A stretch of 64,000 nt of DNA, taken from the IMG/VR virus record IMGVR_UViG_3300045988_175722, positions 40,206 through 104,205 of that record; one strand, written 5' to 3'. The DNA is from a virus. Shown here one piece after another: positions 2,866 through 64,000 of the stretch; the stretch's first letter is position 1, and every line of letters begins with the position of its first letter. The translations under genes and the position numbers were made by a program. The notes below the pieces were generated by a model. The model did no database searches. It was given only the letters and a program-made list of their open reading frames with translations, and was not told the origin of the DNA.

Positions 2866-3447
2866 ATGATTGCAGTAACATCTCCTCTCTTGGTAATTCT
2901 GTTTATGCTCTTAGTAATGCTTATATTTGTAATATGTGACAAGGTAAAAACAGAAAGATCTTATAGATTAAGTCATAGACTTTGGACAGGAGAGGAGAAA
3001 TGCCAATGGGATATAGAGTCTCAGTTCATCACTGGAGATTTGGTGTCAATAGATTCACATCTTGTATATGAAGTCTTGGGGCGTATTTCGGAAACGGAAT
3101 ATCTAGTCACTTATAATCGACTTTTGAAAAAGGGACACCTAGTCGTGCATGTATCTAACATGAATGGTATCAGAATTACACCTGAAAGATTGATACGTGC
3201 AGGTTTTTCCTGTCCGGACTATGATCCGGAAGATATACGTTTCGATGTGCCTTATAAAAAGGTGTTCAAAAAGGATGGAACTGAAGTTATGATAACTCAT
3301 AGCGCCAAGAGCACTATACTAAGAGACTATTGGAATGTTCATTTAGAACATTACGATTTTGTTACCCCGTCCAAAAAAGATATTGTTTACATCCACGAGT
3401 TGCAGCATTTTCTTTTTGGTCTAGGTCTTAATTATCGAGATGAATAA
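2866..3447 (+). CDS. hypothetical protein with an N-terminal TM helix
   Basis: 193 aa with the N-terminal segment SPLLVILFMLLVMLIFVI. Confidence 0.5.
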   Translation: MIAVTSPLLVILFMLLVMLIFVICDKVKTERSYRLSHRLWTGEEKCQWDIESQFITGDLVSIDSHLVYEVLGRISETEYLVTYNRLLKKGHLVVHVSNMNGIRITPERLIRAGFSCPDYDPEDIRFDVPYKKVFKKDGTEVMITHSAKSTILRDYWNVHLEHYDFVTPSKKDIVYIHELQHFLFGLGLNYRDE

Positions 3448-20900: not shown

Positions 20901-23900
20901 TTAGGTCTTGATAAGCTTGGAGTGTCTTTTCAGGATATAGACCGATGGGTCAGCAAGGGTGCAAGCGGTACCTCCGTGTTCTGGTACTTAGCTAAAAAAC
21001 TGCCGAAAAATAAATCAGGCTTGATTAGCGGTGAAAATTGGAAAGTTGATAATAAGGGTTTCGTTTACCGCCAGGGTTATGACGGCAGAAAGATTTCTCC
21101 CTCTTCCAGTGACCCGCAAATGGTATTCAAACTTCGTGATTTGCTTTCTGCGTCTCGCTGGTACACAAACGCTACGCATCGTAGAGGCAATAAAGAAAAG
21201 GAAATTGAGAAGGCTTATGCGAATTGGGTTCCAGAAGGATATACTGATTATCCGGAAGAAAGTCCTGGCACTCTTGATAATAATGCACCCGATCCTGATG
21301 CTATCGCTGCTGCGAAGCGGGAGGCACGTGAACAGAAGCAGGCGTTGCGTGACCAGCAGCGTTCCTGGCGTGATGAGCTGAAGCAGAAGCAGGACGAGGC
21401 GAGTGCTATCATGGATAACGTTCGCAACTTCTATGAGCGACAAATTAACGAGAAGCTATCCCAGGCAGTAAGCCTCGGAAGGGATGAGACAGAGCAGAAA
21501 TTCTATATAGAACCGATAAAGAGACGTATGAATGAAGCTCTTGCTCAGGTGCGCCTTGCTATCGCTGGTCAGGCTAACACCTGGGAGGAGTTCAAGAAGA
21601 CGATGGATAATGATCTTGTTGAGAAGACCGATGAGACTGGCGTGAATCTTTCTCAAAATCTCCTCGCTTCCATCCAAAAGAATAACGTCGATGCCCTGCG
21701 TGAGAAGATGGCTCAGTTGGGTAATAGTCTGAACCGCTCGATGAACTCCATCACGTCTGAAATCTTTGCCAAGGCTACCAAGAATCAGCAGAATAATATA
21801 ACGCTGGAGGCTCAACAGGCAGAAGCTCGGCGAAAGATAGCCCGAGAGCACAACTATACTGGAGCCGTGCAGCAGAGCATGTACGATGATTTCAATCAGA
21901 TGGGCTTCGCTAACCCAACCGGTTTTGAGCTAGCGGATGAGGAACGCGCAGAAAAACGCAAGGAGCATATCATCGCCATGTACGAGCAGGCAAGAAAGCA
22001 AATTGCCAACCTTTATACAGTTGATGTCAGCAGTAAAGAGGGTAGGGGATTGTTGATGCAGATGCTCTTTGGTGATGATCCTTATGCACTGGGTGCCCGT
22101 ATTCAGAATATGTTGGGCGATAATGCGGAGGACTGGCATGTGTTCTATAATAAACTCATTCAGTATTCTGATGAATATACCGAAGCTCAGAAGAAGACCT
22201 TCGACCAGGCAAAGAAGATTGCCGAGCAGATGTGGAAGGTGAACCAGCGCAATCTTGCCAATCAGGAAGCCCTTCGCAAGATGCAGCAGGAAAGTGCGCT
22301 CTTCGGCAAGCGAACTAATATGTGGTCGAACCTTGGACTGGGTAATCTCACCGCTGACCCAGAGGTGGAGCTGATGAAGATGAAGATGCAGATGGCAGAA
22401 GATTACTATGCCTTTGTATTCAAGAACTCAAAGAACAAGCAGCTCCTCGATGAAGCTGACAAGGCTCGTCAGGAGGCAGAACTCGCCTACGTCAACCAAA
22501 TGGCTACGGCGATGAGGAACCGCCTTTCTCAGATGCAGCAGCTCGTGCAGCCTATCGAAACCTTCGGTGCAGAAGTAGGCAAGGCATTTGCCGAAATGCG
22601 CAACGATGCAAAAAGCGCACAGGAGAGCATCAAGAACGCCCTGAAGTCTATGCTCGAATCGTGGGGTAACATGGCACTCAACGACGTGAATACGCAGATG
22701 TGGAAGGCTATCAATGATGCTGGCGCCAAGCGAGCCAAGAAGAAAGCACAACCTGGTATTGATGCAGCGAGAGCCAACGCTGATGCCAATGCCGTGAAGG
22801 AAGATTTCTCTCATCTCGGCACAAAGGCGAATCCGATGTATGTGCGACTGGTAGATGAGGGTGCATCTTATCTTACTCAGCAGCCGCAGTCTAGTTTCGA
22901 GAATATGAGTTCACGGCAGCAGCCTATCGGTTGGAATCCTGATGGCTCGCCTATCATGCCTGGCAAATCTCCTGTTGCGCCTGATAACACTCCCGTCGTG
23001 CCTTATGCGCCTACCGATACCAAGCAGCAGGGCACGCAAGAGCAGCAAAACGGTGCTCCTCATGCGTGGGCACATCGCAACCGAGACAATGCTAATGCGT
23101 TCTACCAGGATGCAGCCACGCAAACGGGTGCAGCCGCAGCCGATGTTATCTCGGGCGGTAGCTCTTTCAATGATGCCGCAGCCGGTATCGCTGGTTCCTC
23201 CGTTGGAGGAATGATGAACACCGAGTTCAAAACTGGCGGCAAATCCAAGGAGGATAAGGAAAAAGCCGAGCAGTTGAAGAAGGAAAAGAAGCACCAGAAG
23301 GAGCTGAGTAAAGAGGTAAAGAAGGGCAACAAGGAACGTGAAAAGGTAACTACCCAGGGTGTTAAGAACATCACAGATGTAACCGCTGCCGGAAACAAGG
23401 AGCAGAACGAGGGTACTAAGGTGACTTTGAATGCAGGTATGCAGATGACGGAAACGGCCCTTAATACCAACCTTGCAAAGACAAAGGAGAACAACCAGGA
23501 AGTAACCGAGTCAGATGCCAGCCGCACGCAGGCTGAAATGACCTTCTCTATCGCTGGTGCGATGGCGAAGTGTTTCGAGTTCCTGGGTCCTATCGCTGGT
23601 CCTATTGCAGCCGCAGGCGTAATGGCCACCCTTATGGGCTTACTCCAGTGGGCACTCAACTCTGCCTTCAGCAGTGGCAAGAAAAAGAACACATCTTCTT
23701 CCACCAATACCAAGCTCACCTCCGGCATGCTTACCTACGATAGTGGTAACGTGCAGGATTTGAAGCCTTTCGTGGCCGATAATGGCGAGGTGTATTGGGC
23801 AAAAGAGGATGATGGAAAGCAGATGCAGGGCGTGAAGATGCTTACCACTCCTACCGCCACCACCGTAAACGGGCAGCCGTCTTTGGTAGCCGAGAAGGGA

Positions 23901-24272
23901 CCGGAAATCGTCATTGGTAGAGAAACTACCCATGCCATGATGATGAATAACCCTGGTTTGCTGAAAGCCCTTGTGAATTTCGACCGTAACTACTCAGGCA
24001 GAAACTCAGCAAGAAGGGCATTTGATAATGGCAACGTGGGTGATGTTCTTGCAGCAGGCACGCAAGCAGGCAATGGTAATCTTTCGTCTGGCGCGTCAGC
24101 GACAGGCGACCTGGTTACCGCAAGCATTGCAAGCAATGCGGCGCTTCTGCAAGCCGTGAATGCGCTCATTCAGCGTTTGAACGAACCTATCAATGCCAAG
24201 ATTAATATGTATGGTCGTGACGGACTGCATGATAGCCTGAATAAGGCTAATCAGTTTATGAAGAATAAATAG
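17997..24272 (+). CDS. tail tape measure protein
   Basis: 2091 aa with extended coiled-coil-like sequence. It has a TMP core-like block (SLTDIRKVSGLT…LAQLAYQGAKLGMG…AADQINVAIGE) and hydrophobic segments. Confidence 0.85.
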   Translation: MAKNKTEAIITLNGQQPLQVLKQLQEAAAGISEQIDAAQAKLKNLKPNTDPYKTLDATIKDLKKQYDLLASAQIKDIAANERLQSVVDQLSNTSLRNLRRALGDGKRQLEGLSEAELEQANSIRAMMKEVGDEIRLLEGKYVKIKEGLKDVDEQSDQWLSKALTQQRELVSSLKKTDASYQSNLDTLKQLEAEEDRRKGKMSVWEATGIVNRKHASASDLRRAKTTLTEARDNTDLSDENKINSYNESLATIEKRLEAVSGKAQKASMDSITLLKILSNPNGHPAEDIKAAMDAIQKQIQKLPVGSQEVAKLRQQYAMLEKALKGTYLSHSQLNDVIERGRRGKASINELKQAYNQLSEELNQLNTKSKEFNEKQKELKDLKKNIDNATGSISQQSKSWQTAVKNLTAYVGLFQVFNAIKDTVTSAIKKNFEYSSSLTDIRKVSGLTMQDVNKLSEELAKIDTRTSVDGLAQLAYQGAKLGMGKYGVEGMKQFVAAADQINVAIGEEMGEEALPALSKMVETMGLIPKMGIEKAMLATGSAMFKLSSTSTSTSTNIVEFAKRLTGVSRTAGITTDQLLALGSASDSLFLMPEVSATAMSKFIVALQKNHNLIEKDLGIQQGTIKNMYAAGHAMDAIVLVLEKMRDKGNMNALGEIFKDLGSDGQRLITSMVTMSKNVDVLKDHLYESKEAFEEASAVTNEYKMQQQSAAGILDRANNLWEKAFVNPDGVESVKAMAQAWYDMSQMILQSPVFKNTLQAALWSVITACKVFITLLPLIANYFAALGIYKTVSFLWELGKALKAAAAAQTLFNSAAKVNPYVAIASAILTAVGVVWSFAEANREAAAAEAEATRKANSWKKTLNEAAVETSNLNKKLDNYKRMMNEANLSQKERQGLVSRFNRDFRSYIANLGIEIKNVKDLRDHYSELAQEAQRATYYRMREKAKQQALPKFDSDRNAASNVLMEKVRGLGLDKLGVSFQDIDRWVSKGASGTSVFWYLAKKLPKNKSGLISGENWKVDNKGFVYRQGYDGRKISPSSSDPQMVFKLRDLLSASRWYTNATHRRGNKEKEIEKAYANWVPEGYTDYPEESPGTLDNNAPDPDAIAAAKREAREQKQALRDQQRSWRDELKQKQDEASAIMDNVRNFYERQINEKLSQAVSLGRDETEQKFYIEPIKRRMNEALAQVRLAIAGQANTWEEFKKTMDNDLVEKTDETGVNLSQNLLASIQKNNVDALREKMAQLGNSLNRSMNSITSEIFAKATKNQQNNITLEAQQAEARRKIAREHNYTGAVQQSMYDDFNQMGFANPTGFELADEERAEKRKEHIIAMYEQARKQIANLYTVDVSSKEGRGLLMQMLFGDDPYALGARIQNMLGDNAEDWHVFYNKLIQYSDEYTEAQKKTFDQAKKIAEQMWKVNQRNLANQEALRKMQQESALFGKRTNMWSNLGLGNLTADPEVELMKMKMQMAEDYYAFVFKNSKNKQLLDEADKARQEAELAYVNQMATAMRNRLSQMQQLVQPIETFGAEVGKAFAEMRNDAKSAQESIKNALKSMLESWGNMALNDVNTQMWKAINDAGAKRAKKKAQPGIDAARANADANAVKEDFSHLGTKANPMYVRLVDEGASYLTQQPQSSFENMSSRQQPIGWNPDGSPIMPGKSPVAPDNTPVVPYAPTDTKQQGTQEQQNGAPHAWAHRNRDNANAFYQDAATQTGAAAADVISGGSSFNDAAAGIAGSSVGGMMNTEFKTGGKSKEDKEKAEQLKKEKKHQKELSKEVKKGNKEREKVTTQGVKNITDVTAAGNKEQNEGTKVTLNAGMQMTETALNTNLAKTKENNQEVTESDASRTQAEMTFSIAGAMAKCFEFLGPIAGPIAAAGVMATLMGLLQWALNSAFSSGKKKNTSSSTNTKLTSGMLTYDSGNVQDLKPFVADNGEVYWAKEDDGKQMQGVKMLTTPTATTVNGQPSLVAEKGPEIVIGRETTHAMMMNNPGLLKALVNFDRNYSGRNSARRAFDNGNVGDVLAAGTQAGNGNLSSGASATGDLVTASIASNAALLQAVNALIQRLNEPINAKINMYGRDGLHDSLNKANQFMKNK

Positions 24273-37727: not shown

Positions 37728-39029
37728 ATGATAACAAAATTCAATTTTAAGGATAAGACCATCAAGTCTTATGCCATCCGAAAGCTGACACCTTTCGAGT
37801 GTTTCCGACTGATGGGTGTTCGTGATAATGTGATACAAACCATGCAGAGCACCAATGCCCAGGCAGCCGAACGCATCGCCAACTACAAGGGCAAGGGCAA
37901 ACCTGAAGATATGGCAGTATCAGCCAGTCAGCAATACAAGCAGGCGGGTAACTCCATCGTGGTAGATGTGCTTGCAGCCATCTATCAGCAACTCTGGTAC
38001 CAGAAAGAACCAAAGCGTGAGGCACAGACCTCCCTCTTTGCCGATTTCTTCCCAGAAGACCAACTCCCTACCTATCCGGTAGATAAGAACGATGATGAGA
38101 AACTTATTCTTACCACCTTCTCCGGTTACGACTCGCAGTTGATGGCAGCCGATGTGCTCGCCCAGCAGCATCCTGATTTCCGCTGGACGTGCGTAGGCTG
38201 GAGCGATATAGATAAGTATGCCTGTCAGATGCACGACCTTATCTTTCCGCAGTTTTCCGACAAAGCCTTGGGCGATATAACCAAAATCGACTGGCAACAG
38301 GTAAAATCTAATACGGGGGGGCAAGAAATTGACCTCTTTACCTATTCTTCACCTTGTCAGGATATATCGCAAGCCGGCAAGCAGATGGGTCTGAAGGAAG
38401 GTTCCGATACCCGCTCTGCATTATTGTGGCGAGTAGTCGATGCCGTAGAGGTATTGCGGCCTAAATACCTGCTCCAAGAGAACGTAGCAGCCCTGGTAAG
38501 CAAGAAGTTTATGCCCGATTTTCAGAAGTGGCTTGATAAGCTCTCTTCTCTTGGCTACGTAAGCCGATGGGCACGCCTCAATGCCAAAGACTATGGTGTT
38601 CCGCAGAACCGCGACCGAGTTTTCTGCCTCTCAATGAGAAAAGATGTAGCCTTCGATTACCAGTTTCCCGACCCTATTCCGCTGAAGAGAAAGTTGGAAG
38701 ATGTGTTGCAGGAAGAAGTAGATACAAGGTTCTTCTTGAAAGATGAATCCGTCAGCAAGTTCCTCCAGGCAAACGATAAAGACACCTGTGTCTTCCATCA
38801 GTTTGAGATAGAGCCGAGCCACGAGAATGCCATGGCATTGAAAGCCATCCTTACCCTTTTCGTAGAGCAGTATGATTGCTGGAACCGCAAGCCTAAGAGA
38901 ATGCAGGAGCTACTTGTTTCTTCTCACGAGGATATTATCATGCCATTATTCAATGATTGGAAAGAGAACGGCAAGTTCCAAAATCCAAAGTTAGATAGTT
39001 TGTACCATCAGTTTTTGGAGAAGAAATGA
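37728..39029 (+). CDS. DNA (cytosine-5) methyltransferase core, circularly permuted (IX-X-I…VIII), with no TRD
   Basis: AIRKLTPFECFRLMG (IX) and QAGNSIVV (X) lie at the N-terminus. They are followed by FSGYDS (I), SPCQDIS (IV), QENV (VI) and QNRDRVF (VIII). The G7 tract at 38315-38321 is in frame. Confidence 0.85.
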   Translation: MITKFNFKDKTIKSYAIRKLTPFECFRLMGVRDNVIQTMQSTNAQAAERIANYKGKGKPEDMAVSASQQYKQAGNSIVVDVLAAIYQQLWYQKEPKREAQTSLFADFFPEDQLPTYPVDKNDDEKLILTTFSGYDSQLMAADVLAQQHPDFRWTCVGWSDIDKYACQMHDLIFPQFSDKALGDITKIDWQQVKSNTGGQEIDLFTYSSPCQDISQAGKQMGLKEGSDTRSALLWRVVDAVEVLRPKYLLQENVAALVSKKFMPDFQKWLDKLSSLGYVSRWARLNAKDYGVPQNRDRVFCLSMRKDVAFDYQFPDPIPLKRKLEDVLQEEVDTRFFLKDESVSKFLQANDKDTCVFHQFEIEPSHENAMALKAILTLFVEQYDCWNRKPKRMQELLVSSHEDIIMPLFNDWKENGKFQNPKLDSLYHQFLEKK

Positions 39030-49232: not shown

Positions 49233-50441
49233 ATGGATAGAAAAATAATAATCACCGGAACCGGCATCCTTTCCGCTATGGGCAGGAATACAAAGGAAGT
49301 AGCCATGAATCTTTATCATGGCAAATGCGGCTTGCATCATGATGAATGCCGTGATAACTACATCTCCGATTTATGCGGCGACGTGTGTAGCTACGAAAAA
49401 GATTACCATGATATTCTTACTCATGCACAATGCGAATGTATGCCTGTACACGGTTTCGACGTGCTCGATGCAGTATTCGAGGCGCTGAAGGAAGCAAAGG
49501 TTAGTAAAGAGTTCTTGGAAAACCATAACGTTTCCATCGTCGTAAGCAACGATTCTGAATGCTACGAGAGTAGGTGTGTAGTGAATCATGTAGATGAGGA
49601 CAACTTCAATAATTCCTTGCCGGTAAGTACCCTCTTCCGCTCACTTAATTCCACCATCAGCATGAACCTGGCTACCATCCTCGGTATTCATGGCTTATCA
49701 CTTACTGTAAGCGCAGCTTGTGCAGGAGGTGGCCACGCCATTGGTTTGGCGAAGATGCTTCTCGATAGCAAACAGACCGAAATGGTAATTGTGGTTGGCG
49801 CGCAGGAATACGAGTCTCAATATTGCATGGAAGCTTTCGATGCCCTGGGTGTCTTCTCACCCGATAAAGTGCAGCCATTTGGTAAAGGCAGAAATGGACT
49901 CGCACCATCGGGCGGTGCAGCCTGCATCATCCTCGAACCATCGGATAGCCTTCGCCTGAAAGAAGAGAAAGTGCATTCCTTCGCTTCTCTTTCCGGCTAT
50001 AGCTTTTCAACAACCGGAAAAGCTATCACTACTCCTGATGCCTATCAGGAAGAAGTATCTATGGTCAATGCCATCGAGAACGCGGGTCTGGATGAAGGCA
50101 TGATAGATGTGGTTCTCGCCCACGCCACGGGTACCCCAATGGGTGATGCAGCGGAAGCGGAAGCCATCGGAAAGATTTTCTCTATCTGTCCGAATGTGGT
50201 AGCCACGAAGGGCATGACAGGCCACGAGTGCTGGATGGCAGGCGTATCGCAAGCCGTGCAAGCCGTAATCATGTTCACCTATGGCCGTCTGTTTCATGCA
50301 GCCACTACCGAGGAGAATGCCTTCCCGGAATTGAACCTGGTGATGCGCCCTAAGTATTACTCACCTCATCATATCCTCTGCAATGCCTTCGGTTTTGGTG
50401 GTACCAACGCATCCTTTGTCGTCTCAAAGGTTCCTCGTTAG
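49233..50441 (+). CDS. beta-ketoacyl-ACP synthase (KAS I/II type)
   Basis: Active-site Cys in SAACAGGGHAIG, His in HATGTPMGD, Lys/His in ATKGMTGHECW, and C-terminal NAFGFGGTNASFVV. Confidence 0.85.
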   Translation: MDRKIIITGTGILSAMGRNTKEVAMNLYHGKCGLHHDECRDNYISDLCGDVCSYEKDYHDILTHAQCECMPVHGFDVLDAVFEALKEAKVSKEFLENHNVSIVVSNDSECYESRCVVNHVDEDNFNNSLPVSTLFRSLNSTISMNLATILGIHGLSLTVSAACAGGGHAIGLAKMLLDSKQTEMVIVVGAQEYESQYCMEAFDALGVFSPDKVQPFGKGRNGLAPSGGAACIILEPSDSLRLKEEKVHSFASLSGYSFSTTGKAITTPDAYQEEVSMVNAIENAGLDEGMIDVVLAHATGTPMGDAAEAEAIGKIFSICPNVVATKGMTGHECWMAGVSQAVQAVIMFTYGRLFHAATTEENAFPELNLVMRPKYYSPHHILCNAFGFGGTNASFVVSKVPR

Positions 50442-54458: not shown

Positions 54459-55685
54459 ATGATTATTTCAAAGACAACCAAACTCGACATCCAGCATGAA
54501 CCGCTAGACGTGAGTTGCAACATCGTCGCCCACGGCGGTATTCCCGACCGGCAGGTGTTTGATAGTGCCAGCGGCGGTTATACTCCCGACTATTCGGTAG
54601 ATGCTCCGCTCTGTCTCTATCCGCAGTGCCGAGCCTTCGGTTCCAACGAGAGTACGCCGGATGGCGGTATCGTTAACAGTGACGCAAAGAACTTTTCTTT
54701 TGCCTGGTATGAGCTTGTGTTCGATAAGGCGAAAAATAAGTACGTGCGTGGCGAAGCCCTTAAAAGCAGTGCTTCCTACACTGTGGTAGAAACATCAGCC
54801 GATGGACTGATTCGAGGCATGCTGCTGGTACGCAAGAATGCCCAGCCGAACAATCCGATCCGTCTGGAGTTTGAAGCCAATTACACCGACAAGGCAAACC
54901 GCGTACTCCACTATCTGGGGCAGAAGAACGTAACCTGCGATGATATGGAGGCTGCCACTCCAGTGATGCACCTTACGCCTACATCGTCTATCTTCAATCC
55001 TCTGAAGGAAAATTCAAAGGTGACTTTTGATGTATTGATTACCGACGGCAACAGCAATATCACTAACAATAAAAATGTGCTTATCAAGTGGTACCGCAAG
55101 GTGAACGTGAACGGCACATCTTACGATTTGCAGGAGGTGAAGGCTAGCGGCATTGACGATGTAGAAGTTCTTGAACTCTCTACCAAAACCGTTACCATCG
55201 ACGGCAAGGACGTAAGTTCGCCGGGCAGCAAGCTCACCATCGACCGCAGTCTGATAGGCGAGGAGATACAGTATGTGTGCAAGGCAATACGCCGTCCTAC
55301 CCTGTCAAAATCAGATGATTTCACCGATCGAGATCCATCGCAGACCGTGGGTGTGCGCTGGCAACTTCCAGCCATCAAGGTGACAACCTACGGCATGATG
55401 GACACCGCCGACGAGCAGCAGGAGACTATCAATCCTAGCTTCGATATTCGTGACGTGCAGACGCAGGAAGTATATGAAAACTGGGCTGACTTCTACAACA
55501 TCTCCTGGCAGGTGAAGAATCCGGGCGAAATCGCCTTCAAGGAAGTTTCTACCGAAGCCAACCCTTCTATTCCGTTTATAGCGGGCATGGGGGTGCAGCT
55601 GGGCGTAGAGCCAAAGGGACCGAAGAAACTGGTTACTGCAGGCGGCAAGCAAATGACGATAGACGGCAAGTTCCTGGTAGTATAA
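54459..55685 (+). CDS. hypothetical tail-module protein
   Basis: 408-aa ORF. Confidence 0.55.
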   Translation: MIISKTTKLDIQHEPLDVSCNIVAHGGIPDRQVFDSASGGYTPDYSVDAPLCLYPQCRAFGSNESTPDGGIVNSDAKNFSFAWYELVFDKAKNKYVRGEALKSSASYTVVETSADGLIRGMLLVRKNAQPNNPIRLEFEANYTDKANRVLHYLGQKNVTCDDMEAATPVMHLTPTSSIFNPLKENSKVTFDVLITDGNSNITNNKNVLIKWYRKVNVNGTSYDLQEVKASGIDDVEVLELSTKTVTIDGKDVSSPGSKLTIDRSLIGEEIQYVCKAIRRPTLSKSDDFTDRDPSQTVGVRWQLPAIKVTTYGMMDTADEQQETINPSFDIRDVQTQEVYENWADFYNISWQVKNPGEIAFKEVSTEANPSIPFIAGMGVQLGVEPKGPKKLVTAGGKQMTIDGKFLVV

Positions 55686-55687
55686 AG

Positions 55688-55718
55688 CCCCCGTCCCCAG
55701 CGATTCTATCGCTGGTCC
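55688..55718 (+). repeat. gene-boundary hairpin element copy 15
   Basis: The loop is TCT. It lies 3 nt after the stop at 55685. Confidence 0.85.
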
Positions 55719-55768
55719 AATAACAAATAAGAAAAATAAATTATTAACAAAAAAAAATAAAAGAAATT

Positions 55769-56278
55769 ATGGGTACAGATTTTCCTAGAATCAAGGTTAC
55801 ACCGAAGGTAGCCAAGCTCTTTGCTAATTTGCAGATGCGCAACAAAACGCGCGATGGTAATTACATTCTCTGGATGAGTGATTTGGACACGGTTCCGGGT
55901 GATACCATCGCCGATAGAGCTGCCTACGTAGGCGGTGCTTTGCTTACTCCTATGGAGACCAAGATGGAGTGCCAGGGCACGGCAGCTCAGTATAAGTCGG
56001 TCTCCACTCCGGTTTATCTGGATAAGGACGCAGAGACAGAAGCAGCCAGCAATAAGCAGGCGACAGACAACAACGGCAGCGAGAGTACCGATACGGGCTA
56101 TGTGGCTCCCGAGGTAGTAGGTGGCAGCATTCCGTCGGTAGTTGCTCCGGCAGGTGATAGTCATGCACCGGAAGAGAACACAGAGGGTACAGAAGGCGCA
56201 GATAGTGCAACAGGCAGCGAGAACGGCGACCATGCCGACAGTGCCGCAGCCGATGCAGCAGCAAAGAAGAGTAAATAA
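55769..56278 (+). CDS. hypothetical protein, acidic low-complexity C-terminus
   Basis: 169-aa ORF. Confidence 0.45.
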   Translation: MGTDFPRIKVTPKVAKLFANLQMRNKTRDGNYILWMSDLDTVPGDTIADRAAYVGGALLTPMETKMECQGTAAQYKSVSTPVYLDKDAETEAASNKQATDNNGSESTDTGYVAPEVVGGSIPSVVAPAGDSHAPEENTEGTEGADSATGSENGDHADSAAADAAAKKSK

Positions 56279-56300
56279 TTAAAGCAGGAGGACATAGACT

Positions 56301-57425
56301 ATGAGTAATCAGGCTTCATATATTACCAACGTGGCTTATTCAAGAAGCGGTGGTACCTATTCGGCACGCATGGTGTCAGATTATGGCGACATCTATCAGA
56401 ACTACACGGCGTATGACAGTGCCACCAAGCAGGCATCAGGCATTTCGCCATCATTCGTAACCAATCCGCCTACCGTGCAGATTGCTATTTTCAATAGTAA
56501 GAAGGTAGGTCAGGTTTCGGGTTCCGACAATTCGGTAAATACAACGGGTGAGGTTTATCCGGGTAGTGTGGTGTGGACCGCCATCGGACAGGAACTTACC
56601 TTTGACAGCAAGGGTATTTCTACCAATACTTTCAACGGCGAGACGGGTCATTTCCAGCTTGTCAATGCCAACGCGGCAACCAATACCCGTGCGGGTTTGA
56701 AAATCATCAAGAACGTGGTTGTTGCTTCACAGGCAACTCCATTCTCTATTGATGCCGTAGCGAGCGTGGCAAACGGTAAGGGTTCTACCAAGGTTCCTGC
56801 ATCTTTGTCAGTGGCAATTAAGAAGGTGAGCACGGGTTCGGTAGTGGTGAATATTACCGCTACAAATGGCGGCATTATTTACGCTGGAGCTGGAGGCAAA
56901 TACAAAACAACAAGGCTTACTGCTACCGTTTCTAGTATCAGTGATGATACCTCTTCGTCAGGCTTAACTTATGAGTGGTATGCGCAGAATCTGGAAACGG
57001 GCGAATTTGTCATTATGGATGGCGAGATTAAGAATTACATCGATGTCGGTTTGGATATGGTTGACCAGTCTCGACTTTTCAAGGTAACGGTATCTGCCAA
57101 AGGCTCCGCGATTGGATCTGATACTTGTGCAGTATTTGACCAGTCAGATCCTCTGCGTATTGACGCGAACCCGGTTCCGTCTGACGAGACCATAAGAGAG
57201 GGCGATGCAACTGCCAGTCAGGTCAAATGGACTCCGGTGCTGATGCGAGGCAATGATGCTGTCGATGATTCTAAGGTAGAATGGAAGTTCCGTATTTACG
57301 ATTCTGTAGGACAGACGGTTTATCCGCAAGATTTGACCGATAAGGCGAAATTCATCGTTACCGAGCAGATGTTTGGTGATTTGGGTTCTCTCCAGGCGTG
57401 CATCTTCGCCAAGACAACCGCATAA
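56301..57425 (+). CDS. hypothetical tail-module protein
   Basis: 374-aa ORF, beta-rich in appearance. Confidence 0.55.
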   Translation: MSNQASYITNVAYSRSGGTYSARMVSDYGDIYQNYTAYDSATKQASGISPSFVTNPPTVQIAIFNSKKVGQVSGSDNSVNTTGEVYPGSVVWTAIGQELTFDSKGISTNTFNGETGHFQLVNANAATNTRAGLKIIKNVVVASQATPFSIDAVASVANGKGSTKVPASLSVAIKKVSTGSVVVNITATNGGIIYAGAGGKYKTTRLTATVSSISDDTSSSGLTYEWYAQNLETGEFVIMDGEIKNYIDVGLDMVDQSRLFKVTVSAKGSAIGSDTCAVFDQSDPLRIDANPVPSDETIREGDATASQVKWTPVLMRGNDAVDDSKVEWKFRIYDSVGQTVYPQDLTDKAKFIVTEQMFGDLGSLQACIFAKTTA

Positions 57426-57477
57426 AAAGCGCTTTTCGCACAAAGGATTTTTTTAGAATAAACATAAATTAATCAAT

Positions 57478-60342
57478 ATGCAAAACGGAGCAGTATATAC
57501 CACGCAGGTGGGCTATGTAAAAAAGGGTGCGGATGCGGTTTCCTACGAAATCGTACCCTCCACCCGCTCCTTGCTTGTCCTTGCTAATGGTCATTGGGCG
57601 GAGGGAACGACGACGAGCACGAGCTTTGCAAAGGTAACTTGCTCGGTATATAAGGTAATCGGTTCCAAGCGAGAGCTATGTACCGAGAAGTTGTATTATT
57701 CGGCAAGCAGTGCTTATATTAAAGGCTTCATGTTCGACAAGGGTACCTTTTACCTGATAATCCCCCGCAGTGCCACCATTGTGGATGTTTCCATCTTTGT
57801 TTGTGACAAAACTACATCGAAGCCTACAGGCAATCCGCTTGCCATGATCAGCATCCCCGTGGTTCACAATGGAACCGATGGCACCAGCGGTGCATCGCTC
57901 CTCTGTCAGTATTCCAGCAATGGAACGGGCAACTGGCATGATGATTATCAGCAGGGCACGGATTTCTGGATGCACCAAAAGCTTTCCACCGATACCAACT
58001 GGAGTGCTCCGATGCGCATTATAGGTGAACAGGGCATCAAAGGCAAGGACGGCAGCTATACCGAGTTTGGCTACGGTATCAGTAGCATGGAGGCTACCAG
58101 CAGCCCTACCACATCGCCTACAGATGTAAGCGAATGGTTTGATGGTCCGCAGAAGACTACCGCCAAGAAGCCTTATCTCTGGATGACTACCTGCAGGTTT
58201 TCGGGCGACGGCAAGGAAGGCACGAGATATTATGTCAGAATCAACGGTAAAGATGGTGCCAATGGTACATCTATCAACATCAAGGGCAATTTAGCCAATT
58301 CGGGCTTGCTCCCTACATCAGGTGCAGCCCTCGGCGACTGTTATCTGATAAACGGCGAACTCTGGGTGTATGTAGGTGAACAGGAAGGTGGAAACACTGA
58401 TACCATGGTGTATGGCTTCGTGAACTGCGGCAGCATCAAGGGTGCCCCTGGCGCTAATGCCACCCAGTACTTCTACCATGTGGCCTGGGCGAACAACATC
58501 ACCAAGCAGGAAGACGGCTCCATCGTAGCAGAAGGTTTTACTACCTCTAACCCCGCGGGCGCAGCCTATGCCTATATGGGTGTGTGCTACAATACCAACG
58601 GCAAGACCGACCCTGATACGCCATCGGTGTACAAATGGGTAAAGGTGGGAGGCAAGCCGGCCATTACGTGCGAGGTTCGCCTTGATACCAACACCGTGAC
58701 GCTGAATGAAAAGACGGGCAAGTTCGTAACCGAGAAGCTGGGTAAGTTCCGCTACATCAAGCATGTGGGTGGAACGGAAGAAGAGATAAACTCGGTGTAT
58801 CTGTTATCCAATAACCTGGCGATATTTCTTAAGGATGGTGTAGTAAAGGGCGGTCTCATGGCCAGCGGTGAGTCTGACATCATGAAGTTCATCGAGAATA
58901 GCAAGATAGCTCAGACCGACATCGACATGATCCGCTTCTTCTGGTACGACCAGATGCTGCTGAATCTAAACAGTGATCCGAACGGTACCATCCTTAAGAG
59001 AATCAGGGATGCGCAGGGTATTCCGCCCGCCGATACAGGAATCAAAATCCTGGCAAGCAGCACCTTTACCGTATTGCGCCAGCCGAAAGATGGCGAACGG
59101 GGCAGTGCGGGAGCCAAGTGGCGACAGCACAAGGGTTTCGTTAAGGCTTCGGAAGCTGAACCTTACGGCTATATGGCAGGTGGTGAAGGAGAAGAGTTCA
59201 TCGACGTGGTATTGGTAGGCAAGGTGTGGTACCGCTGCCAGAAATCGTACCAATCTACGGGCATCACTGACCCTAACAATACCCTGGGCACATCTGCCTT
59301 TGAGGAATATTGGGGTGCCCCATTTACCAATGCCGATTTCATAGCCACGGATTTGTTCTTGGCTGAGAATGCCAAGATTAACCTTCTGGGTTCCAACGAG
59401 GTGAATCTTTATGACAGCAGCAGCGATGGCAACGAAACAGGTAAACTCTTCGGTTCTTATCGTGTGCCCGTAGTGACGGCAGGTAGTATTCCGTATGCCT
59501 TATGGCTGGGAGGAGAGACAGGTGCAGATGCCCCATTCTCGGTAACGAAGGGTGGAGAGATTTATGCCACGGCGGGACAGATTGGTTCGTTCAATATTGT
59601 GACAAAAAAAGACCTGGTATCGGACTACGTTTTTTACAGTCTTTCTGCCTATTCAGAAGGCACGATATATGGCCTTCCTCCCTGTTGTACCGTCTTGGAT
59701 AATTACGGAATTTTTGTTCACAGTGATATAGCGGTACCGGGAAACTGGACGCATATTGAGTTGGGTAGAGAGAGTGAGCTAACAAGCAATGATACGAGCA
59801 TAGATCCTATGTACCGATATGGAGCAGGTAAGCTCGTTAGGATAAACGGAGATACATCTAGTGTAGAACTTGATATTACGGGTATCTATGTAAGCGTAAG
59901 GTCTCATCCCGATAATAGGAGCTATGCTTTCTATGCGGACAGTGGTGACATAAGGGTTTATCAGGGCAAGATAGAAGTAGATAGCGGCGATGTAGAGGTA
60001 AAGAAAGGCGATTTCGTAGGCACGCACCGTCCGCCTACGGCGGTTACGGACAAAGACAAAGCTCTGACTGATGCTGATTATTTTGTTGTTTGTACGAACG
60101 GCGAAAGGACCACCATCACTCTCACGCTTCCTCTTTTTCCAAAAGAAGGTCAGTCATACCAGATATATCAGGCAGGCAAAGGTAAGGTAGTGGTGAAATC
60201 TACAACATCCCGCCACCCCATCGTATCACACAACCACGATTATCCGGGCGGTTCGCAGGATTTCACGTCCAACACGACCAACCAGACCACGTGGGTTATC
60301 TATGCACAAGGCAAATGGTATCTTAATTTTTTAAATCATTAA
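57478..60342 (+). CDS. tail fibre protein (putative)
   Basis: 954 aa. WSAPMRIIGEQGIKGKDGS is a fibre-like motif. It lies immediately upstream of the DGR target gene. Confidence 0.6.
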   Translation: MQNGAVYTTQVGYVKKGADAVSYEIVPSTRSLLVLANGHWAEGTTTSTSFAKVTCSVYKVIGSKRELCTEKLYYSASSAYIKGFMFDKGTFYLIIPRSATIVDVSIFVCDKTTSKPTGNPLAMISIPVVHNGTDGTSGASLLCQYSSNGTGNWHDDYQQGTDFWMHQKLSTDTNWSAPMRIIGEQGIKGKDGSYTEFGYGISSMEATSSPTTSPTDVSEWFDGPQKTTAKKPYLWMTTCRFSGDGKEGTRYYVRINGKDGANGTSINIKGNLANSGLLPTSGAALGDCYLINGELWVYVGEQEGGNTDTMVYGFVNCGSIKGAPGANATQYFYHVAWANNITKQEDGSIVAEGFTTSNPAGAAYAYMGVCYNTNGKTDPDTPSVYKWVKVGGKPAITCEVRLDTNTVTLNEKTGKFVTEKLGKFRYIKHVGGTEEEINSVYLLSNNLAIFLKDGVVKGGLMASGESDIMKFIENSKIAQTDIDMIRFFWYDQMLLNLNSDPNGTILKRIRDAQGIPPADTGIKILASSTFTVLRQPKDGERGSAGAKWRQHKGFVKASEAEPYGYMAGGEGEEFIDVVLVGKVWYRCQKSYQSTGITDPNNTLGTSAFEEYWGAPFTNADFIATDLFLAENAKINLLGSNEVNLYDSSSDGNETGKLFGSYRVPVVTAGSIPYALWLGGETGADAPFSVTKGGEIYATAGQIGSFNIVTKKDLVSDYVFYSLSAYSEGTIYGLPPCCTVLDNYGIFVHSDIAVPGNWTHIELGRESELTSNDTSIDPMYRYGAGKLVRINGDTSSVELDITGIYVSVRSHPDNRSYAFYADSGDIRVYQGKIEVDSGDVEVKKGDFVGTHRPPTAVTDKDKALTDADYFVVCTNGERTTITLTLPLFPKEGQSYQIYQAGKGKVVVKSTTSRHPIVSHNHDYPGGSQDFTSNTTNQTTWVIYAQGKWYLNFLNH

Positions 60343-60361
60343 TTATAATAAGTAAAATAAT

Positions 60362-61117
60362 ATGGCAATTCAAACAATCGATTTCAATGAATGGGTAAAA
60401 GCGAACCCATCGGTAGTAAGCAGCGCCATCAAGAGCAATTTCTTGCAGGCGGCTAAATCGGACATGGTGGAGCTGATGAACCAGAACCTCCGTCCGTTGC
60501 AGGATGGTGTGTATATCGGTAAGATTCAGAAAGAGACCTGGGGTAGCTACATGCGTACCGAGCCATGGCAGACTACCAACATCGGTATTACTGCAGCAGA
60601 TGCAGATGCCATCGTGATTCAGTTCGGCGGCTATCGCCTCGGTATCGCACTTACTGAGCCTGATGCCCTGAAATGGGGCAGTAGTACCACGGTGCGTGTA
60701 AACGTGGCAGATGATCTGAACAGCTATGATGGCAAGCAGCTCACTGCCAACATCATAAAGAATGATGCGTACAAAAATGATGCTGCCGCTACTTACGCCG
60801 TGGCATACGCCTACGCCTACAGTAAGGGGCACACGGGTGATCCAGGTGGCGATGTAAGTATTCCGGCTAAGAGTTGGTGGCTGCCTACCATGGGTGACCT
60901 CGCCTTGATTCACCGCTACTTCGAGACCATCAATCTCGCCCTGACAAGAATCAAGAACGCAGGTAAGCAGACCGTGACCCTGCTCCAGCGCGCCGGCTAC
61001 TGGAGTTGTTGTGAGACCAGTGCAGGCAACGCTCGCCATCTGGTTTTCTCCAATGGCATTCGCGGCAACTACGGTAAGGGTATTACGGATCGTGTGCGAC
61101 CTGTTACGGCATTTTAA
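60362..61117 (+). CDS. DGR variable protein (receptor-binding candidate; DUF1566/C-type-lectin-like C-terminus)
   Basis: 251 aa. WWLPTMGDLALI…YWSCCETS…VRPVTAF fits the pattern of DGR targets. The VR occupies the last 44 codons. Confidence 0.85.
   Translation: MAIQTIDFNEWVKANPSVVSSAIKSNFLQAAKSDMVELMNQNLRPLQDGVYIGKIQKETWGSYMRTEPWQTTNIGITAADADAIVIQFGGYRLGIALTEPDALKWGSSTTVRVNVADDLNSYDGKQLTANIIKNDAYKNDAAATYAVAYAYAYSKGHTGDPGGDVSIPAKSWWLPTMGDLALIHRYFETINLALTRIKNAGKQTVTLLQRAGYWSCCETSAGNARHLVFSNGIRGNYGKGITDRVRPVTAF
60986..61113 (+). repeat. DGR variable repeat (VR)
   Basis: 128 nt, identical to the TR except at 12 positions, each of which is A in the TR. Confidence 0.9.
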
Positions 61118-61148
61118 CCTCTTTATCTCTTTACCTCTTTATCTCTTT

Positions 61149-61164
61149 CCCGCCGCTAGGCGGG
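61149..61164 (+). promoter_or_regulatory. GC hairpin downstream of the VR (candidate DGR target-recognition hairpin)
   Basis: CCCGCC GCTA GGCGGG, starting 35 nt after the VR end. It is preceded by a duplicated CCTCTTTATCTCTTT. Confidence 0.45.
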
Positions 61165-61221
61165 CAAGCAAGGATGGAAGCAGGAATGGAGGCAAGAAAC
61201 GCAGCCAGAAAAGCATTTATT

Positions 61222-61248
61222 CTCGCTCGCCATCGGCGAGCGAGTTTT
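61222..61248 (+). terminator. intrinsic terminator
   Basis: CTCGCTCGCC ATC GGCGAGCGAG followed by TTTT. Confidence 0.65.
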
Positions 61249-61364
61249 CACCGAAAATCGGGGCGTTTCGCTCCGATTTTCTTATTTTTGGGGCAAAAAT
61301 CGGATTTTTATCTTAAATGGCGTTAAATTTTGGGCTAGAATTTGATGGTATCAAAATTTATTAT

Positions 61365-61372
61365 TACTTTTG
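61365..61372 (+). promoter_or_regulatory. -7 box candidate for the avd-TR-RT unit
   Basis: TACTTTTG matches TAnnTTTG. Confidence 0.3.
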
Positions 61373-61496
61373 CAGAAAATAAATTGTTTAACATAAATTT
61401 AAAAAGAAAAGCACAATTACTTAGACTAGCTTATCCGAGCGCCTTTGGGCGCAAGTGATAGCCAAGTCTCTGCAAATTGTCAGCAAGAGTTTTGAT

Positions 61497-61844
61497 ATGG
61501 CAGAAGCAAGACAGCTCCCGATTTATCGGGCTACGTATGAGCTTGTGAGCAAGTTGACCTCCTGGGTAGAAAACTTCCCTAGGATACATCGCTTTACACT
61601 TGGCGACAGGGTGGTATGCAACGCCATCGACCTGTTCAATTACATCCAGCTCGCCAATATGTATGCAGACCAGAGAAAACAGTACCTCATGGGGTTTACA
61701 ACGAAACTGGAACTCGTAAAAACGCTGTTACGCCTATGCTTTGAGAGAAAACTTTTCTCGACAAAACAATCGGCTGACATTTGTAGAATGATGACCAATA
61801 TCGGTAAACAGGCTACCGGCTGGAGGAACTCCAAGAAGGTTTAG
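61497..61844 (+). CDS. avd: Avd-like four-helix-bundle accessory protein
   Basis: MAEARQLPIYRATYELVSKL…FPRIHRFTLGDRV… matches the four-helix-bundle (23S rRNA IVS protein) family pattern. It lies between the target and the TR. The track ORF starts at 61455. Confidence 0.8.
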   Translation: MAEARQLPIYRATYELVSKLTSWVENFPRIHRFTLGDRVVCNAIDLFNYIQLANMYADQRKQYLMGFTTKLELVKTLLRLCFERKLFSTKQSADICRMMTNIGKQATGWRNSKKV

Positions 61845-61992
61845 TACCCTTGGTTTGAAAAGCAAGAGTATGGTGTTGCCAAGGCGCACCATAGAGACGA
61901 TCCTTCTAGAATAATGGTCCCACCACTGTCAAGTCGCATTCTTGTTTGTAAAAGATTGCGAACCAGTTAAGATGTATTTAGAGTGGGAATAA

Positions 61993-62120
61993 CAGCGCAC
62001 CAACTACTGGAGTTGTTGTGAGAACAGTGCAGACAACGCTCGCAATCTGAATTTCTCCAATGGCAATCGCGGCAACAACGGTAAGGGTAATACGAATCGT
62101 GTGCGACCTGTTACGGCATT
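61993..62120 (+). repeat. DGR template repeat (TR)
   Basis: Rich in AAC/AAT codons (…ACC AAC TAC…AAC AGT GCA GAC AAC…AAT CTG AAT…). It sits 12 nt upstream of the RT ORF. Confidence 0.9.
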
Positions 62121-62132
62121 AGTTTAAGGAAA

Positions 62133-63389
62133 GTGGGAAAGAGTACGGTTATGGTACAAGCAGAAGAGATTTTGGCGGCACATTGCGATTGCATTGATGG
62201 TAAGGCATCGTCACCCGATGCCATTGCGTTTGACGTGGCTCTCTTTGAGAACATCATCAGCCCTACCGACAGCATCAATGCACGTGACTACCAACCTCTG
62301 CCTTCCATCACATTTGTCGTTCCCAAGCCTGTTTATCGTGAGGTGTTTGCTGCCAACTATCGTGATAGAGTGATTCATCACTACATAGCCCTGCGCCTTG
62401 AACCCCTTTACGAAGAGGTATTTAGCGACCGCACCTTTAATTGCAGACGCGGCAAAGGCCAGCTTTACGGCATCAAGCGCCTGGAGGCAGACATCCGAGA
62501 AGCTAGTGATAACTATAAGTACCCCTGCTGGTGCCTACGTGGCGACATGCAGGGCTTTTTCATGAGCATCCCTCGCCAGCGCCTCGCTGACAAGGTGGAT
62601 GCTTTTATCGTCAAGAACTACAAGGGCGACGACATAGAGGATTTGCGCTATGTGAGCCGCATTACCATTATGAACGATCCTACCCGTAATTGCATCCGCC
62701 GTTCGCCCGAGAGCGAGTTTGCGAAAGTTCCGGCAGGCAAAACCCTGAGTACTACCAAGCAGGGCTGCGGCTTGCCTATCGGCAACCTGACCAGTCAGCA
62801 TGATGCCAACTTCTGGCTTAATGATTTCGACTGGATGTTTGAAATTTTCCTCCATATTTATTACCACGGCAGATACGTGGATGATTTCTATGCCGTGCAT
62901 CGCAGCAAGATGGTTCTCGTGAATGCCATCCCCTATATTCGCCATTATCTGGGCGACTATGGCATCAAACTGCACCCAAGAAAAATCAGTCTTCAGTTAT
63001 GCAGCCGTGGTGTAAAGTTTACAGGCATGGTGGTGAAAAACGGCAGGATTTATGCCAGCAACCGCACCGTGGCCAACTTCCGTGACTTAATCTACAAGAT
63101 GAATCTTTTGCCGCAAGACTACACGCTGGATCAGATAAACGCCTACCTCTGTTCCATCAACAGTTACCTGGGCTACATGCGCCATTGCAGCAGTTACGCC
63201 ATCCGCAAAAAGGTGATGCTGATGATGGACCGCCGCTTTTACCGGCATATCTATATCAAGGGCAGATACGAGAGCGTAGCCTTGAAAAACAAGTATAAAC
63301 GCCTGCGTGAAGCAAGAAAGATACTAGCCCATGCCAGCAGCAAGAAGTTTGATTATCTGATGGATAATTACGATAAGCTCTGTGCGTAA
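62133..63389 (+). CDS. DGR reverse transcriptase
   Basis: GLPIGNLTSQ (DGR-type [ILV]GxxxSQ motif) and GRYVDDFYAV (YxDD). The first ATG is at 62151. Confidence 0.9.
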   Translation: MGKSTVMVQAEEILAAHCDCIDGKASSPDAIAFDVALFENIISPTDSINARDYQPLPSITFVVPKPVYREVFAANYRDRVIHHYIALRLEPLYEEVFSDRTFNCRRGKGQLYGIKRLEADIREASDNYKYPCWCLRGDMQGFFMSIPRQRLADKVDAFIVKNYKGDDIEDLRYVSRITIMNDPTRNCIRRSPESEFAKVPAGKTLSTTKQGCGLPIGNLTSQHDANFWLNDFDWMFEIFLHIYYHGRYVDDFYAVHRSKMVLVNAIPYIRHYLGDYGIKLHPRKISLQLCSRGVKFTGMVVKNGRIYASNRTVANFRDLIYKMNLLPQDYTLDQINAYLCSINSYLGYMRHCSSYAIRKKVMLMMDRRFYRHIYIKGRYESVALKNKYKRLREARKILAHASSKKFDYLMDNYDKLCA

Positions 63390-63469
63390 TCGGGCATTTT
63401 TTTATATGTATATATGGTATAAAAAATATACGTTTTATCAATATTAAATCTAGAAAATGTAAAGAAATC

Positions 63470-63634
63470 ATGCAGTATAATTTATCAAGAAATCGCGATA
63501 AAGTGAAGATAATTTCAAAATTAACCCTAAAATCCCTCCCTTCTGAGCAAGAAATTGCAAAAATCATAAAAAATGGATATGAAATCGAGTTCTTCCGTCA
63601 GGGCAATGATGTGGTATGCCTAATAAGCGAATAA
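63470..63634 (+). CDS. small hypothetical protein
   Basis: 54 codons below the track cutoff: MQYNLSRNRDKVKIISKLTLKSLPSEQEIAKIIKNGYEIEFFRQGNDVVCLISE. Confidence 0.3.
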   Translation: MQYNLSRNRDKVKIISKLTLKSLPSEQEIAKIIKNGYEIEFFRQGNDVVCLISE

Positions 63635-63698
63635 AAAGCCTATCAGCTACAAACTACAAGATCGAAGCCTATCAACTATAAACTAGCAGCTATAAACT

Positions 63699-63734
63699 AA
63701 AAAAAAGCCCTACTATCCTCACGGACGGCAGGGC
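63699..63734 (-). terminator. intrinsic terminator for leftward transcription
   Basis: The minus strand reads GCCCTGCCGTCCGTGAGGATAGTAGGGC followed by TTTTTTTT. The hairpin sequence is shared with 30994-31019. Confidence 0.55.
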
Positions 63735-63881
63735 GCATCAATTTTAATACTTTTTCTTTTAAAGATTATAAGCCCACTTCCGGAAGAAGCGAACTTTTAG
63801 CGCCTGCAAAGTTACGAATAAAATTCCGATTACGCGCAATTTTTGGAATAAAAAGAAGATTTTCTCTGAAAAATCCCTCAA

Positions 63882-63917
63882 AAAGTCTTCCGCCAGGCGT
63901 TCCGGCGGATTTGAAAT
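63882..63917. repeat. dispersed partial copy of the IR-A/IR-B unit
   Basis: AAAGTCTTCCGCCAGGCGTTCCGGCGGATTTGAAATC, with a truncated palindrome. Confidence 0.65.
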
Positions 63918-64000
63918 CATAAGTGGTTGAAAGATTATTTTAGGCATGTTGCTCTATAAAGTAGGATTTCCTTTTTTAAGGAATCCTACTTCTTATAGTA

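Follow-up and report, generated by a model that had tools for sequence, protein, structure and literature searches.

Does the cassette near the 3' end of this 64,000-nt stretch of viral DNA (the window hereafter; positions 40,206 to 104,205 of IMG/VR record IMGVR_UViG_3300045988_175722) form a complete diversity-generating retroelement (DGR), and if so, which protein does it diversify? We conclude, with a probability of roughly 0.9, that the window carries a complete DGR with the order target, accessory variability determinant (avd), template repeat (TR) and reverse transcriptase (RT), that it resides in an uncultivated phage of ~104 kb with a probable Prevotellaceae host, and that it diversifies a lectin-like target that is likely receptor-binding. 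A complete DGR had been proposed in the initial annotation of this DNA, and the adenine-specific repeat pair, the Avd protein and the intact RT on which that proposal depended were all confirmed. Positions of the individual features are collected in Table 1.

The variable repeat (VR) and the TR were compared base by base. Both are 128 nt long and they share 91% identity, and each of the 12 mismatches falls on one of the adenines of the TR (hypergeometric P = 5.3e-8 for 12/12 mismatches on A by chance). The pair is the sole long direct repeat within 55000-64000, its homology ends abruptly at both edges, and the invariant 3' end common to the two copies is 23 nt. The VR lies in frame with the target open reading frame, and the altered adenines occupy codon positions 1 or 2 of AAC, AAT, ACC or GAC codons. 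The initial annotation had given the same coordinates, length and number of differences, had placed all differences at TR adenines with a hand count of approximately 36, and had described an AAC/AAT-rich TR together with a VR peptide. Recomputation reproduced the coordinates and differences exactly, the adenine count is precisely 36, and the reading frame and translation agree. The search for additional VRs that it had recommended was run on both strands of the window and revealed no further VR matching the TR at non-adenine positions. Exact-pattern scans of IMG/VR with the TR 3' end and with the TR in which A was replaced by N returned zero matches, as did a scan of JGI metagenomes with the latter pattern.

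Related loci display the same signature. Of 29 more distant IMG/VR loci (52-66% target identity), 25 had a VR/TR pair detected with the target; at least 87% of mismatches lie at TR adenines in 21 of these 25, and in 15 of the 21 all of them do. Most of the 80 loci gathered through the RT, which a query with an RT alignment retrieved and one with the single RT protein did not, likewise show the adenine-biased pattern. An ordinary duplication or gene-conversion tract with a coincidental adenine bias would explain that a repeat exists and nothing more. It is contradicted by the strength of the bias in the window alone, by the independent recurrence of the bias in dozens of related loci and by the avd and DGR-type RT genes that adjoin the repeat pair, and we regard it as effectively refuted already.

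Some relatives have elaborated upon this arrangement. Locus L018 has a second adenine-biased repeat pair (1972-2087 and 2285-2400) and locus L089 has two VRs (1637-1733 and 2484-2580) served by one TR (3313-3410); therefore, multi-target versions of this DGR clade exist. In loci L065-L069, L071-L074 and L087, the RTs of which are 46-50% identical to that of the window, the VR is situated downstream of the RT on the opposite strand, and the TR still abuts the RT start.

Evidence that the element has worked comes from its closest relatives. The target belongs to a cluster of 18 members at 90% identity, of which the 15 listed members were compared. Among these 15, residues 46-208 are almost invariant, each of the 11 AAY codons in the VR shows 4-7 residues, and two of the 18 adenine-free VR codons vary. 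DNA was recovered for three cluster members (L031, L032 and L034; ~88% nucleotide identity over the cassette). Relative to the window TR, the TRs of these three carry substitutions at four non-adenine sites, all four of which recur in the VR of the same genome. Their own VR-TR differences lie at adenines in 12/13, 7/7 and 11/11 cases, respectively. TR-to-VR copying with adenine-specific errors has therefore taken place since these lineages split. These comparisons support recent activity of the element in its lineage, and bear out an earlier description of it as apparently active, which the TR-mirrored VR changes and the near-complete confinement of variation to TR-adenine codons would both suggest.

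A DGR relic, in which the repeats and genes can be recognised but homing has ceased in this genome, the VR differences being left over from the past, would leave some of the same traces. In L031 (11813-13060 of an 83-kb contig, ENA ERZ18534033, ~87% DNA identity), the RT is interrupted by an in-frame stop (W222*) and by a frameshift near residue 296, and the differences between its VR and TR nevertheless remain nearly restricted to adenines. L031 would seem to represent a DGR sampled after its RT was lost, or else the lesions stem from misassembly. Because L031 retains the pattern with a disrupted RT, an A-only pattern is not proof of present activity, and the stop and frameshift imply that the lineage can lose activity. 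In addition, the sole other contig with this exact genome (L030) carries an identical VR. In the window, however, each component (RT, Avd, TR, hairpin, upstream RNA) is intact and conserved, and the VR differs in each close relative that was sampled, on a scaffold that hardly changes, which argues for frequent recent turnover in the lineage. We therefore consider a relic quite improbable and favor a recently active element.

The avd and RT genes could be assigned by family. The Avd protein matches Pfam PF22296 (bAvd) at 2e-14, with 54.4 bits against a cut-off of 40, and PHROG 3206 ('Avd protein of DGR') at 2e-23. Its score of 65.8 bits on the NCBIfam DivGenRetAVD equivalog is under the cut-off of 80, and a sequence search of the PDB gave no match. 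The RT matches Pfam RVT_1 (7e-17) and PHROG 1423 (4e-69), and of all solved structures the one it matches best is the Bordetella DGR enzyme bRT (8ub7, 5e-13), in which GIPIGSLTSQ aligns with GLPIGNLTSQ of the window and YMDD with YVDD. In NCBIfam, the RT obtained group II intron, retron and Drt3a matches only, all of them sub-threshold. It aligns end to end with six relatives (58-96% identity) without a stop codon or frameshift, and no inactivating change was found in that alignment. The RT most likely starts at ATG 62151 rather than at GTG 62133, because in all relatives and in bRT the N-terminus lines up with the former. Both the Avd-like gene between target and TR and the RT motifs LPIGNLTSQ and YVDDF that had been read from the DNA are thus present, the former with Pfam and PHROG in agreement.

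Two observations concern the RT and its surroundings. A 7-bp hairpin at 62204-62222 (+; GGCATCG-TCACC-CGATGCC) lies within RT codons 18-25, over the invariant KASSPDAI motif, the Ala codon of which is GCA in 13/14 relatives. It was rejected as an RNA element since it overlaps this invariant motif and shows no covariation. Just 3' of the RT, an AT-rich intergenic segment of 66 nt (63430-63495) is represented by 10 nt in L030 (12924-12933), a contig from another assembly that is otherwise 100% identical to the window.

The identity of the target was approached through structure. An AlphaFold model built from 79 homologues (pLDDT 85.7) consists of an N-terminal helix, a small beta-sandwich and a C-terminal alpha/beta domain. 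Among PDB entries, Foldseek ranked a Bacteroides ovatus fimbrial protein (4eps, 3e-4) first, together with the C-terminal domain of Legionella Lcl (8q4e_A, E = 4e-4, probability 1.0, TM(target) 0.48), and classical C-type lectins followed at lower significance. Among predicted viral structures (BFVD), DUF1566 proteins were matched at E = 1e-11 to 2e-5, some of them from crAss-like phages. BFVD proteins of 571-1417 aa that are annotated as tail fibres in other phages carry this fold at their C-terminus. A target profile searched against PDB sequences gave no match. Of 1098 target homologues, some carry PF07603 (Lcl_C): two with ~67% identity (P0007 and P0014) score 27-31 bits on it against a cut-off of 34.9, and precomputed PF07603 matches exist on many target-cluster representatives. 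The model, which the initial annotation had asked for, supports a DUF1566/Lcl-type C-type-lectin fold for the target C-terminus. The DUF1566-type C-terminus that the annotation had proposed thus stands on the predicted fold (8q4e, 4eps) and on sub-threshold Pfam scores in homologues, and does not extend to a Pfam match of the protein itself.

It is plausible that the target is the receptor-binding tip encoded by the last gene of a tail-fibre block. The genes just upstream of it are large, co-oriented and have weak PHROG tail or tail-fibre matches (4e-9 to 2e-5). Alternatively, the DGR could be real and its target another displayed or secreted lectin-like protein, such as a decoration of the capsid or tail that binds mucus or glycans, or a surface protein involved in lysogenic conversion. 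The best solved structures are indeed a bacterial fimbrial protein and a Legionella adhesin domain rather than a phage receptor-binding protein, the target is only 251 aa long, the 'tail' annotations of its neighbours are weak, and relatives occur, probably as prophages, in a bacterial chromosome. This alternative is nonetheless unlikely in our view, since the target directly follows large structural-type genes in the same orientation with tail/tail-fibre matches, and annotated tail-fibre proteins end in the same fold. The Bacuni phages, in which VR differences in DUF1566-type targets track host range (PMC8143477), also argue against it; a causal link between VR and host range is a proposal of the authors of that study (PMC8143477).

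A further homologue bears on the same point. L033 (4001-4732 of an 84-kb contig, ENA ERZ27227162) encodes a 243-aa target in which the first ~40 residues and the neighbour genes differ. The exchange of only these residues in a different phage background is what would be expected of an adaptor that docks onto the virion, which again argues for a tail-tip role. No avd, TR or RT was called within 4 kb downstream of this homologue. The L033 VR fits an L031-type TR, with 18/19 mismatches at adenines, and the L033 target may be orphaned or served from a distance, or may derive from module exchange between phages.

Between the target and avd lie several putative cis elements. The hairpin that follows the VR has a core of CCCGCC (61149-61154) and GGCGGG (61159-61164) around a GCTA loop, and is extendable on both sides. 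Its DNA fold has a predicted energy of -9 kcal/mol (z = -2.96), it lies 35 nt after the VR and there is no T-run behind it. The stem covaries in relatives, where it reads CCGACC/GGTCGG, CCGTCC/GGACGG, CCGGCC/GGCCGG, CCGCTC/GAGCGG or CCGTTC/GAACGG. Homing-enhancing hairpins described by Guo et al. in 2011 have 7-10-bp GC stems and 4-nt GRNA loops and are located 4-34 bp after the VR (PMC3240598), so that the distance seen here is at the upper limit of their range. By analogy, this hairpin is likely a homing-enhancer element that corresponds to the BPP-1 hairpin/cruciform. The CT-rich repeats that precede it are kept in the close clade and recur in some of the more distant relatives. These repeats resemble the pyrimidine-rich linker of the upstream RNA described below, and they are complementary to the purine-rich TR-RT spacer (GGGAAAGAG against CTCTTTCCC).

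Downstream of the hairpin, the terminator scan matched 61253-61281 plus a T-run, within the pair of terminator-like hairpins that would end the target transcript. The putative promoter upstream of avd is the window's single exact match to TTTG-N17-23-TAnnTTTG. As ~1.7 such matches are expected by chance, this candidate is supported by position only. If the promoter is real, avd-TR-RT would be a separate transcription unit.

A conserved structured RNA directly 5' of the TR is the one feature of this element that was not expected. The gap of 148 nt between avd and the TR is conserved and displays evident compensatory changes, and RNAalifold applied to a plain, unbiased MAFFT alignment predicted a hairpin and a three-helix domain before the TR. 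A covariance model built from 13 sequences (R1) identified 19 instances, and a second model (R2) gave 39 matches in viral contigs and 11 in bacterial genome contigs. Every match lies on the strand of the RT and stops where the TR begins, and the RTs of the cassettes concerned share 34-73% identity with that of the window. In the 39-sequence alignment, which is model-fitted and thereby favours the structure, 96.6% of cells pair and 28/28 pairs show double-sided changes; 0/500 shuffles reach the observed values, and slid controls pair at 31-46%. The minimum free energy fold of the window sequence by itself agrees with the structure, as does the independent RNAalifold prediction. Frequent G-U pairs on this strand indicate an RNA rather than a DNA structure. 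The RNA is still weakly detected in several of the loci with an opposite-strand VR. A search of Rfam with 61780-62260 yielded no family match even at E<=10, with chance-level scores only.

The 30-nt spacing from TR to RT ATG is maintained throughout related cassettes. It holds no structured, cDNA-priming spacer RNA of the BPP-1 type (Sp; Rfam RT-10) and no Rfam match; a 3' structured spacer is a defining trait of the BPP-1 subtype and not of DGRs in general. RNAalifold pairs columns 73-78 of the alignment with columns 304-309, that is, the pyrimidine-rich linker with the post-TR spacer, and the partners change by clade (GATTCTCC with GGAGAG; AGTCTTC with GAAGAC; GCGTTTCT with the post-TR segment). 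A scan for this duplex across clades gave z values from -2.7 to +1.5, with a weak +1.2 in the window. Tentatively, the spacer may pair with the linker at ~61897-61905, which would enclose the TR in a loop and recall the upstream:downstream 'cPRT Stop' duplex described for the Bordetella ribonucleoprotein (RNP) (10.1101/2023.10.23.563531). Inspection by eye of the TR 3' end against single strands of the upstream RNA and against the first 100 nt of the RT reading frame found no convincing covariation for a BPP-1-like primer:template pairing.

In the Bordetella element, bRT is wrapped by the 140-nt spacer located 3' of the TR, and this spacer RNA also provides the primer. With its RNA placed 5' of the TR and a 30-nt 3' spacer, the present arrangement looks permuted. 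Judged from its conservation and position, the RNA is probably a candidate RNP-scaffold domain of the DGR RNA. That it represents an undescribed class of DGR RNA cofactor, a scaffold that binds RT-Avd and sets up priming from a place upstream of the template in this large gut-phage and Prevotellaceae clade, is a possibility to which we assign somewhat less than even odds; if true, it would mean a permuted RNP with a possibly different priming or termination geometry. The CT-rich repeats by the VR hairpin could then be a matching clade-specific target-site signal. The RNA might instead stand outside retrotranscription, as a regulatory leader for RT translational control or processing, or as a transcript stability element. 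It does occupy a 5' untranslated position relative to the RT, and its pyrimidine-rich linker can pair with purines before the RT start codon and could occlude initiation. Its 3' end is, however, locked to the TR start in 50/50 matches, even where TR length differs, and its long invariant single-stranded stretches suggest protein or tertiary contacts. A leader function is for these reasons on the unlikely side, and the scaffold role remains our preferred interpretation.

Table 1. Features of the DGR cassette, with positions in the window
Feature	Position	Strand	Description
DGR target gene (251 aa)	60362-61117	+	N-terminal helix, beta-sandwich, C-terminal DUF1566/Lcl-type C-type-lectin domain (supported by model) with VR
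Variable repeat (VR)	60986-61113	+	Final 42 codons of target
CT-rich 8-nt repeats TTTATCTC / TTTACCTC, ~4 copies	61114-61147	+	Between target stop codon and hairpin
GC-rich hairpin/cruciform after VR	61145-61168	+	DNA fold, compensatory changes
Two terminator-like hairpins ending target transcript	61222-61290	+	CTCGCTCGCC-ATC-GGCGAGCGAG-TTTT
Bacteroidota-type promoter-like site upstream of avd	61341-61372	+	TTTG...TACTTTTG; tentative
avd (accessory variability determinant, 115 aa)	61497-61844	+	Pfam, PHROG
Conserved structured RNA, 132 nt	61866-61997	+	5 helices, 28 bp; directly 5' of TR
Template repeat (TR)	61993-62120	+	36 adenines; 11 AAY codons in VR frame
Purine-rich TR-RT spacer, 30 nt	62121-62150	+	TR end to RT ATG
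DGR reverse transcriptase (412 aa), intact	62151-63389	+	GLPIGNLTSQ, YVDD

Several points weigh against the reading given at the outset. Two have been mentioned, namely the identical VR in the other contig of this genome and the capacity of the lineage to lose activity. The window target protein itself has no Pfam match even at E<=10, and hence no Lcl_C (PF07603). The tail-fibre assignment of the neighbours rests on weak PHROG matches, and two large upstream proteins have no PDB sequence match. The GCTA loop of the hairpin (GCA or GTA in relatives) departs from the GRNA consensus (PMC3240598), and no BPP-1-like 14-bp GC-rich initiation of mutagenic homing (IMH) sequence is recognisable at the VR 3' end. 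Finally, model R2 has no match in the cultured Bacteroides phages F2 and BS-TP1.

Comparison with known DGRs places the element firmly within a described type. The target-avd-TR-RT order is architecture B1, the commonest DGR arrangement in the scheme of Wu et al. (PMC5758913), and the element is a canonical B1 DGR with a category-d (DUF1566/CLec2-type) target in that scheme (PMC5758913). DGRs with DUF1566 targets were already described in cultured Bacteroides phages (PMC8143477). The initial annotation had likewise regarded it as a known system type, which holds on both counts (PMC5758913, PMC8143477); what is presented here is this system type in an uncultivated phage lineage, with the folded RNA before the TR as its sole unexpected feature.

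The Bordetella phage BPP-1 element shares the gene order (mtd-avd-TR-brt), the Avd accessory protein, the IGxLTSQ and YxDD motifs of bRT, which was the best solved match, a VR at the very 3' end of the gene for a tail protein with a C-type-lectin fold and a GC-rich hairpin after the VR (PMC3240598). It differs in its target, which is Mtd there and a DUF1566/Lcl-type (CLec2-like) domain here, and in the RT, which has 328 aa there and 412 aa here, with a ~45-residue insertion before IGxLTSQ and a C-terminal extension. BPP-1 has a 140-nt structured spacer 3' of the TR, whereas here only 30 nt separate the TR from the RT ATG and the RNA is 5' of the TR. The hairpin of the window also differs in its distance of 35 nt from the VR, its non-GRNA loop and the CT-rich repeats ahead of it.

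The RTs of the Bacteroides uniformis phages F2, F4 and Bacuni_F1 are the closest among cultured phages (44-47% identity), and Bacuni F1, F2 and F4 share the avd-TR-RT order and Bacteroidota gut hosts. Their targets have DUF1566/Fib_succ_major motifs and resemble the B. ovatus fimbrial tip BACOVA_04982 (4eps) (Hedzet et al. 2021, PMC8143477), which is also the top PDB fold match of the target here. In contrast, these phages are siphoviruses of ~40 kb rather than ~104 kb, the target is 27% identical to that of F4, and F2 has no match to the R2 RNA model. The Legionella pneumophila DGR resembles the present one in the avd-TR-RT architecture and in the location of the variable region in a DUF1566-type C-type-lectin domain of its target, LdtA (PMC5758913), which is assigned to category 'd'/CLec2 of Wu et al. 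(PMC5758913). That element is chromosomal and diversifies a bacterial surface lipoprotein, unlike the protein of a phage virion module found here, which lacks a lipoprotein signal. Structured RNAs beside bacterial RT genes have been collected as Rfam RT-1 to RT-19, at least one of them part of a DGR (Weinberg et al. 2017, PMC5737381); of these, RT-10 is found 3' of the TR, in the TR-brt spacer of BPP-1, and the RNA described here lies 5' of the TR.

The carrier is an uncultivated gut phage of ~104 kb. Tape-measure-like, head-protease, endolysin, primase-like, thymidylate-synthase and methyltransferase matches make the window clearly phage. No match was obtained by megablast of the cassette, or by tblastn of a candidate capsid protein, against 50,697 GenBank phage records. 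A crAss-like identity was rejected, given a tape-measure-like gene and head-maturation-protease PHROG matches instead of crAss markers. RTs that are 65-67% identical and accompanied by the same RNA were found in the finished Segatella copri G8 chromosome and in contigs of Prevotella metagenome-assembled genomes, which makes a Prevotellaceae host (Prevotella or Segatella) likely by inference from sequence. The S. copri G8 locus (L119; NZ_CP146523.1, 3106371-3114591) holds a complete target-avd-RNA-TR-RT cassette with an RT of 65% identity, and is probably a prophage and an experimentally accessible relative.

Elsewhere in the window, a 402-aa beta-ketoacyl synthase (49233-50441, +; PF00109 1.7e-23, PF02801 9e-18) is encoded inside the structural/tail block; it is unusual phage cargo and is conserved in L031. 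Two DNA methyltransferase genes are present at 13384-14154 (-) and 37728-39029 (+), with PHROG matches of 2e-75 and 5e-65. The tape-measure-like gene (17997-24272, 2091 aa) is located upstream of the head-protease gene, an atypical module order.

The following mechanism is proposed. The avd-TR-RT unit would be transcribed, probably from its own promoter within ~61341-61372, and the RT together with Avd would copy the TR RNA into cDNA, misincorporating opposite the 36 template adenines. The cDNA would then replace the VR, and with it the last 42 codons of the 251-aa target, assisted by the GC hairpin 35 nt downstream. The expected outcome is the randomisation of 11 AAY codons and a few other adenine-containing codons, giving ~10^13 or more protein variants in which the randomised residues would lie on the ligand-binding face of the DUF1566/Lcl-type C-type-lectin domain and the scaffold residues remain unchanged. 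Most probably, the target serves as a small receptor-binding protein at the far end of the tail, in which case the element would diversify host recognition. The 132-nt RNA 5' of the TR probably organises the RT-Avd RNP, replacing the 3' spacer RNA of Bordetella.

As a DGR, the element adds one well-formed example to a well-studied class. Its wider interest lies in the carriers, widespread uncultivated human-gut phages of ~100 kb, probably on Prevotella/Segatella, that appear to be continuously rewriting a small lectin-like tail protein, a property that matters for predicting host range and for manipulating Segatella copri with phages. To our knowledge, all mechanistic knowledge of DGR cDNA synthesis derives from the Bordetella element, in which the essential RNA scaffold is 3' of the template. 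A clade with a strongly covarying, scaffold-like 5' RNA and almost no 3' spacer would offer a second system in which to test which features of DGR RNAs are universal.

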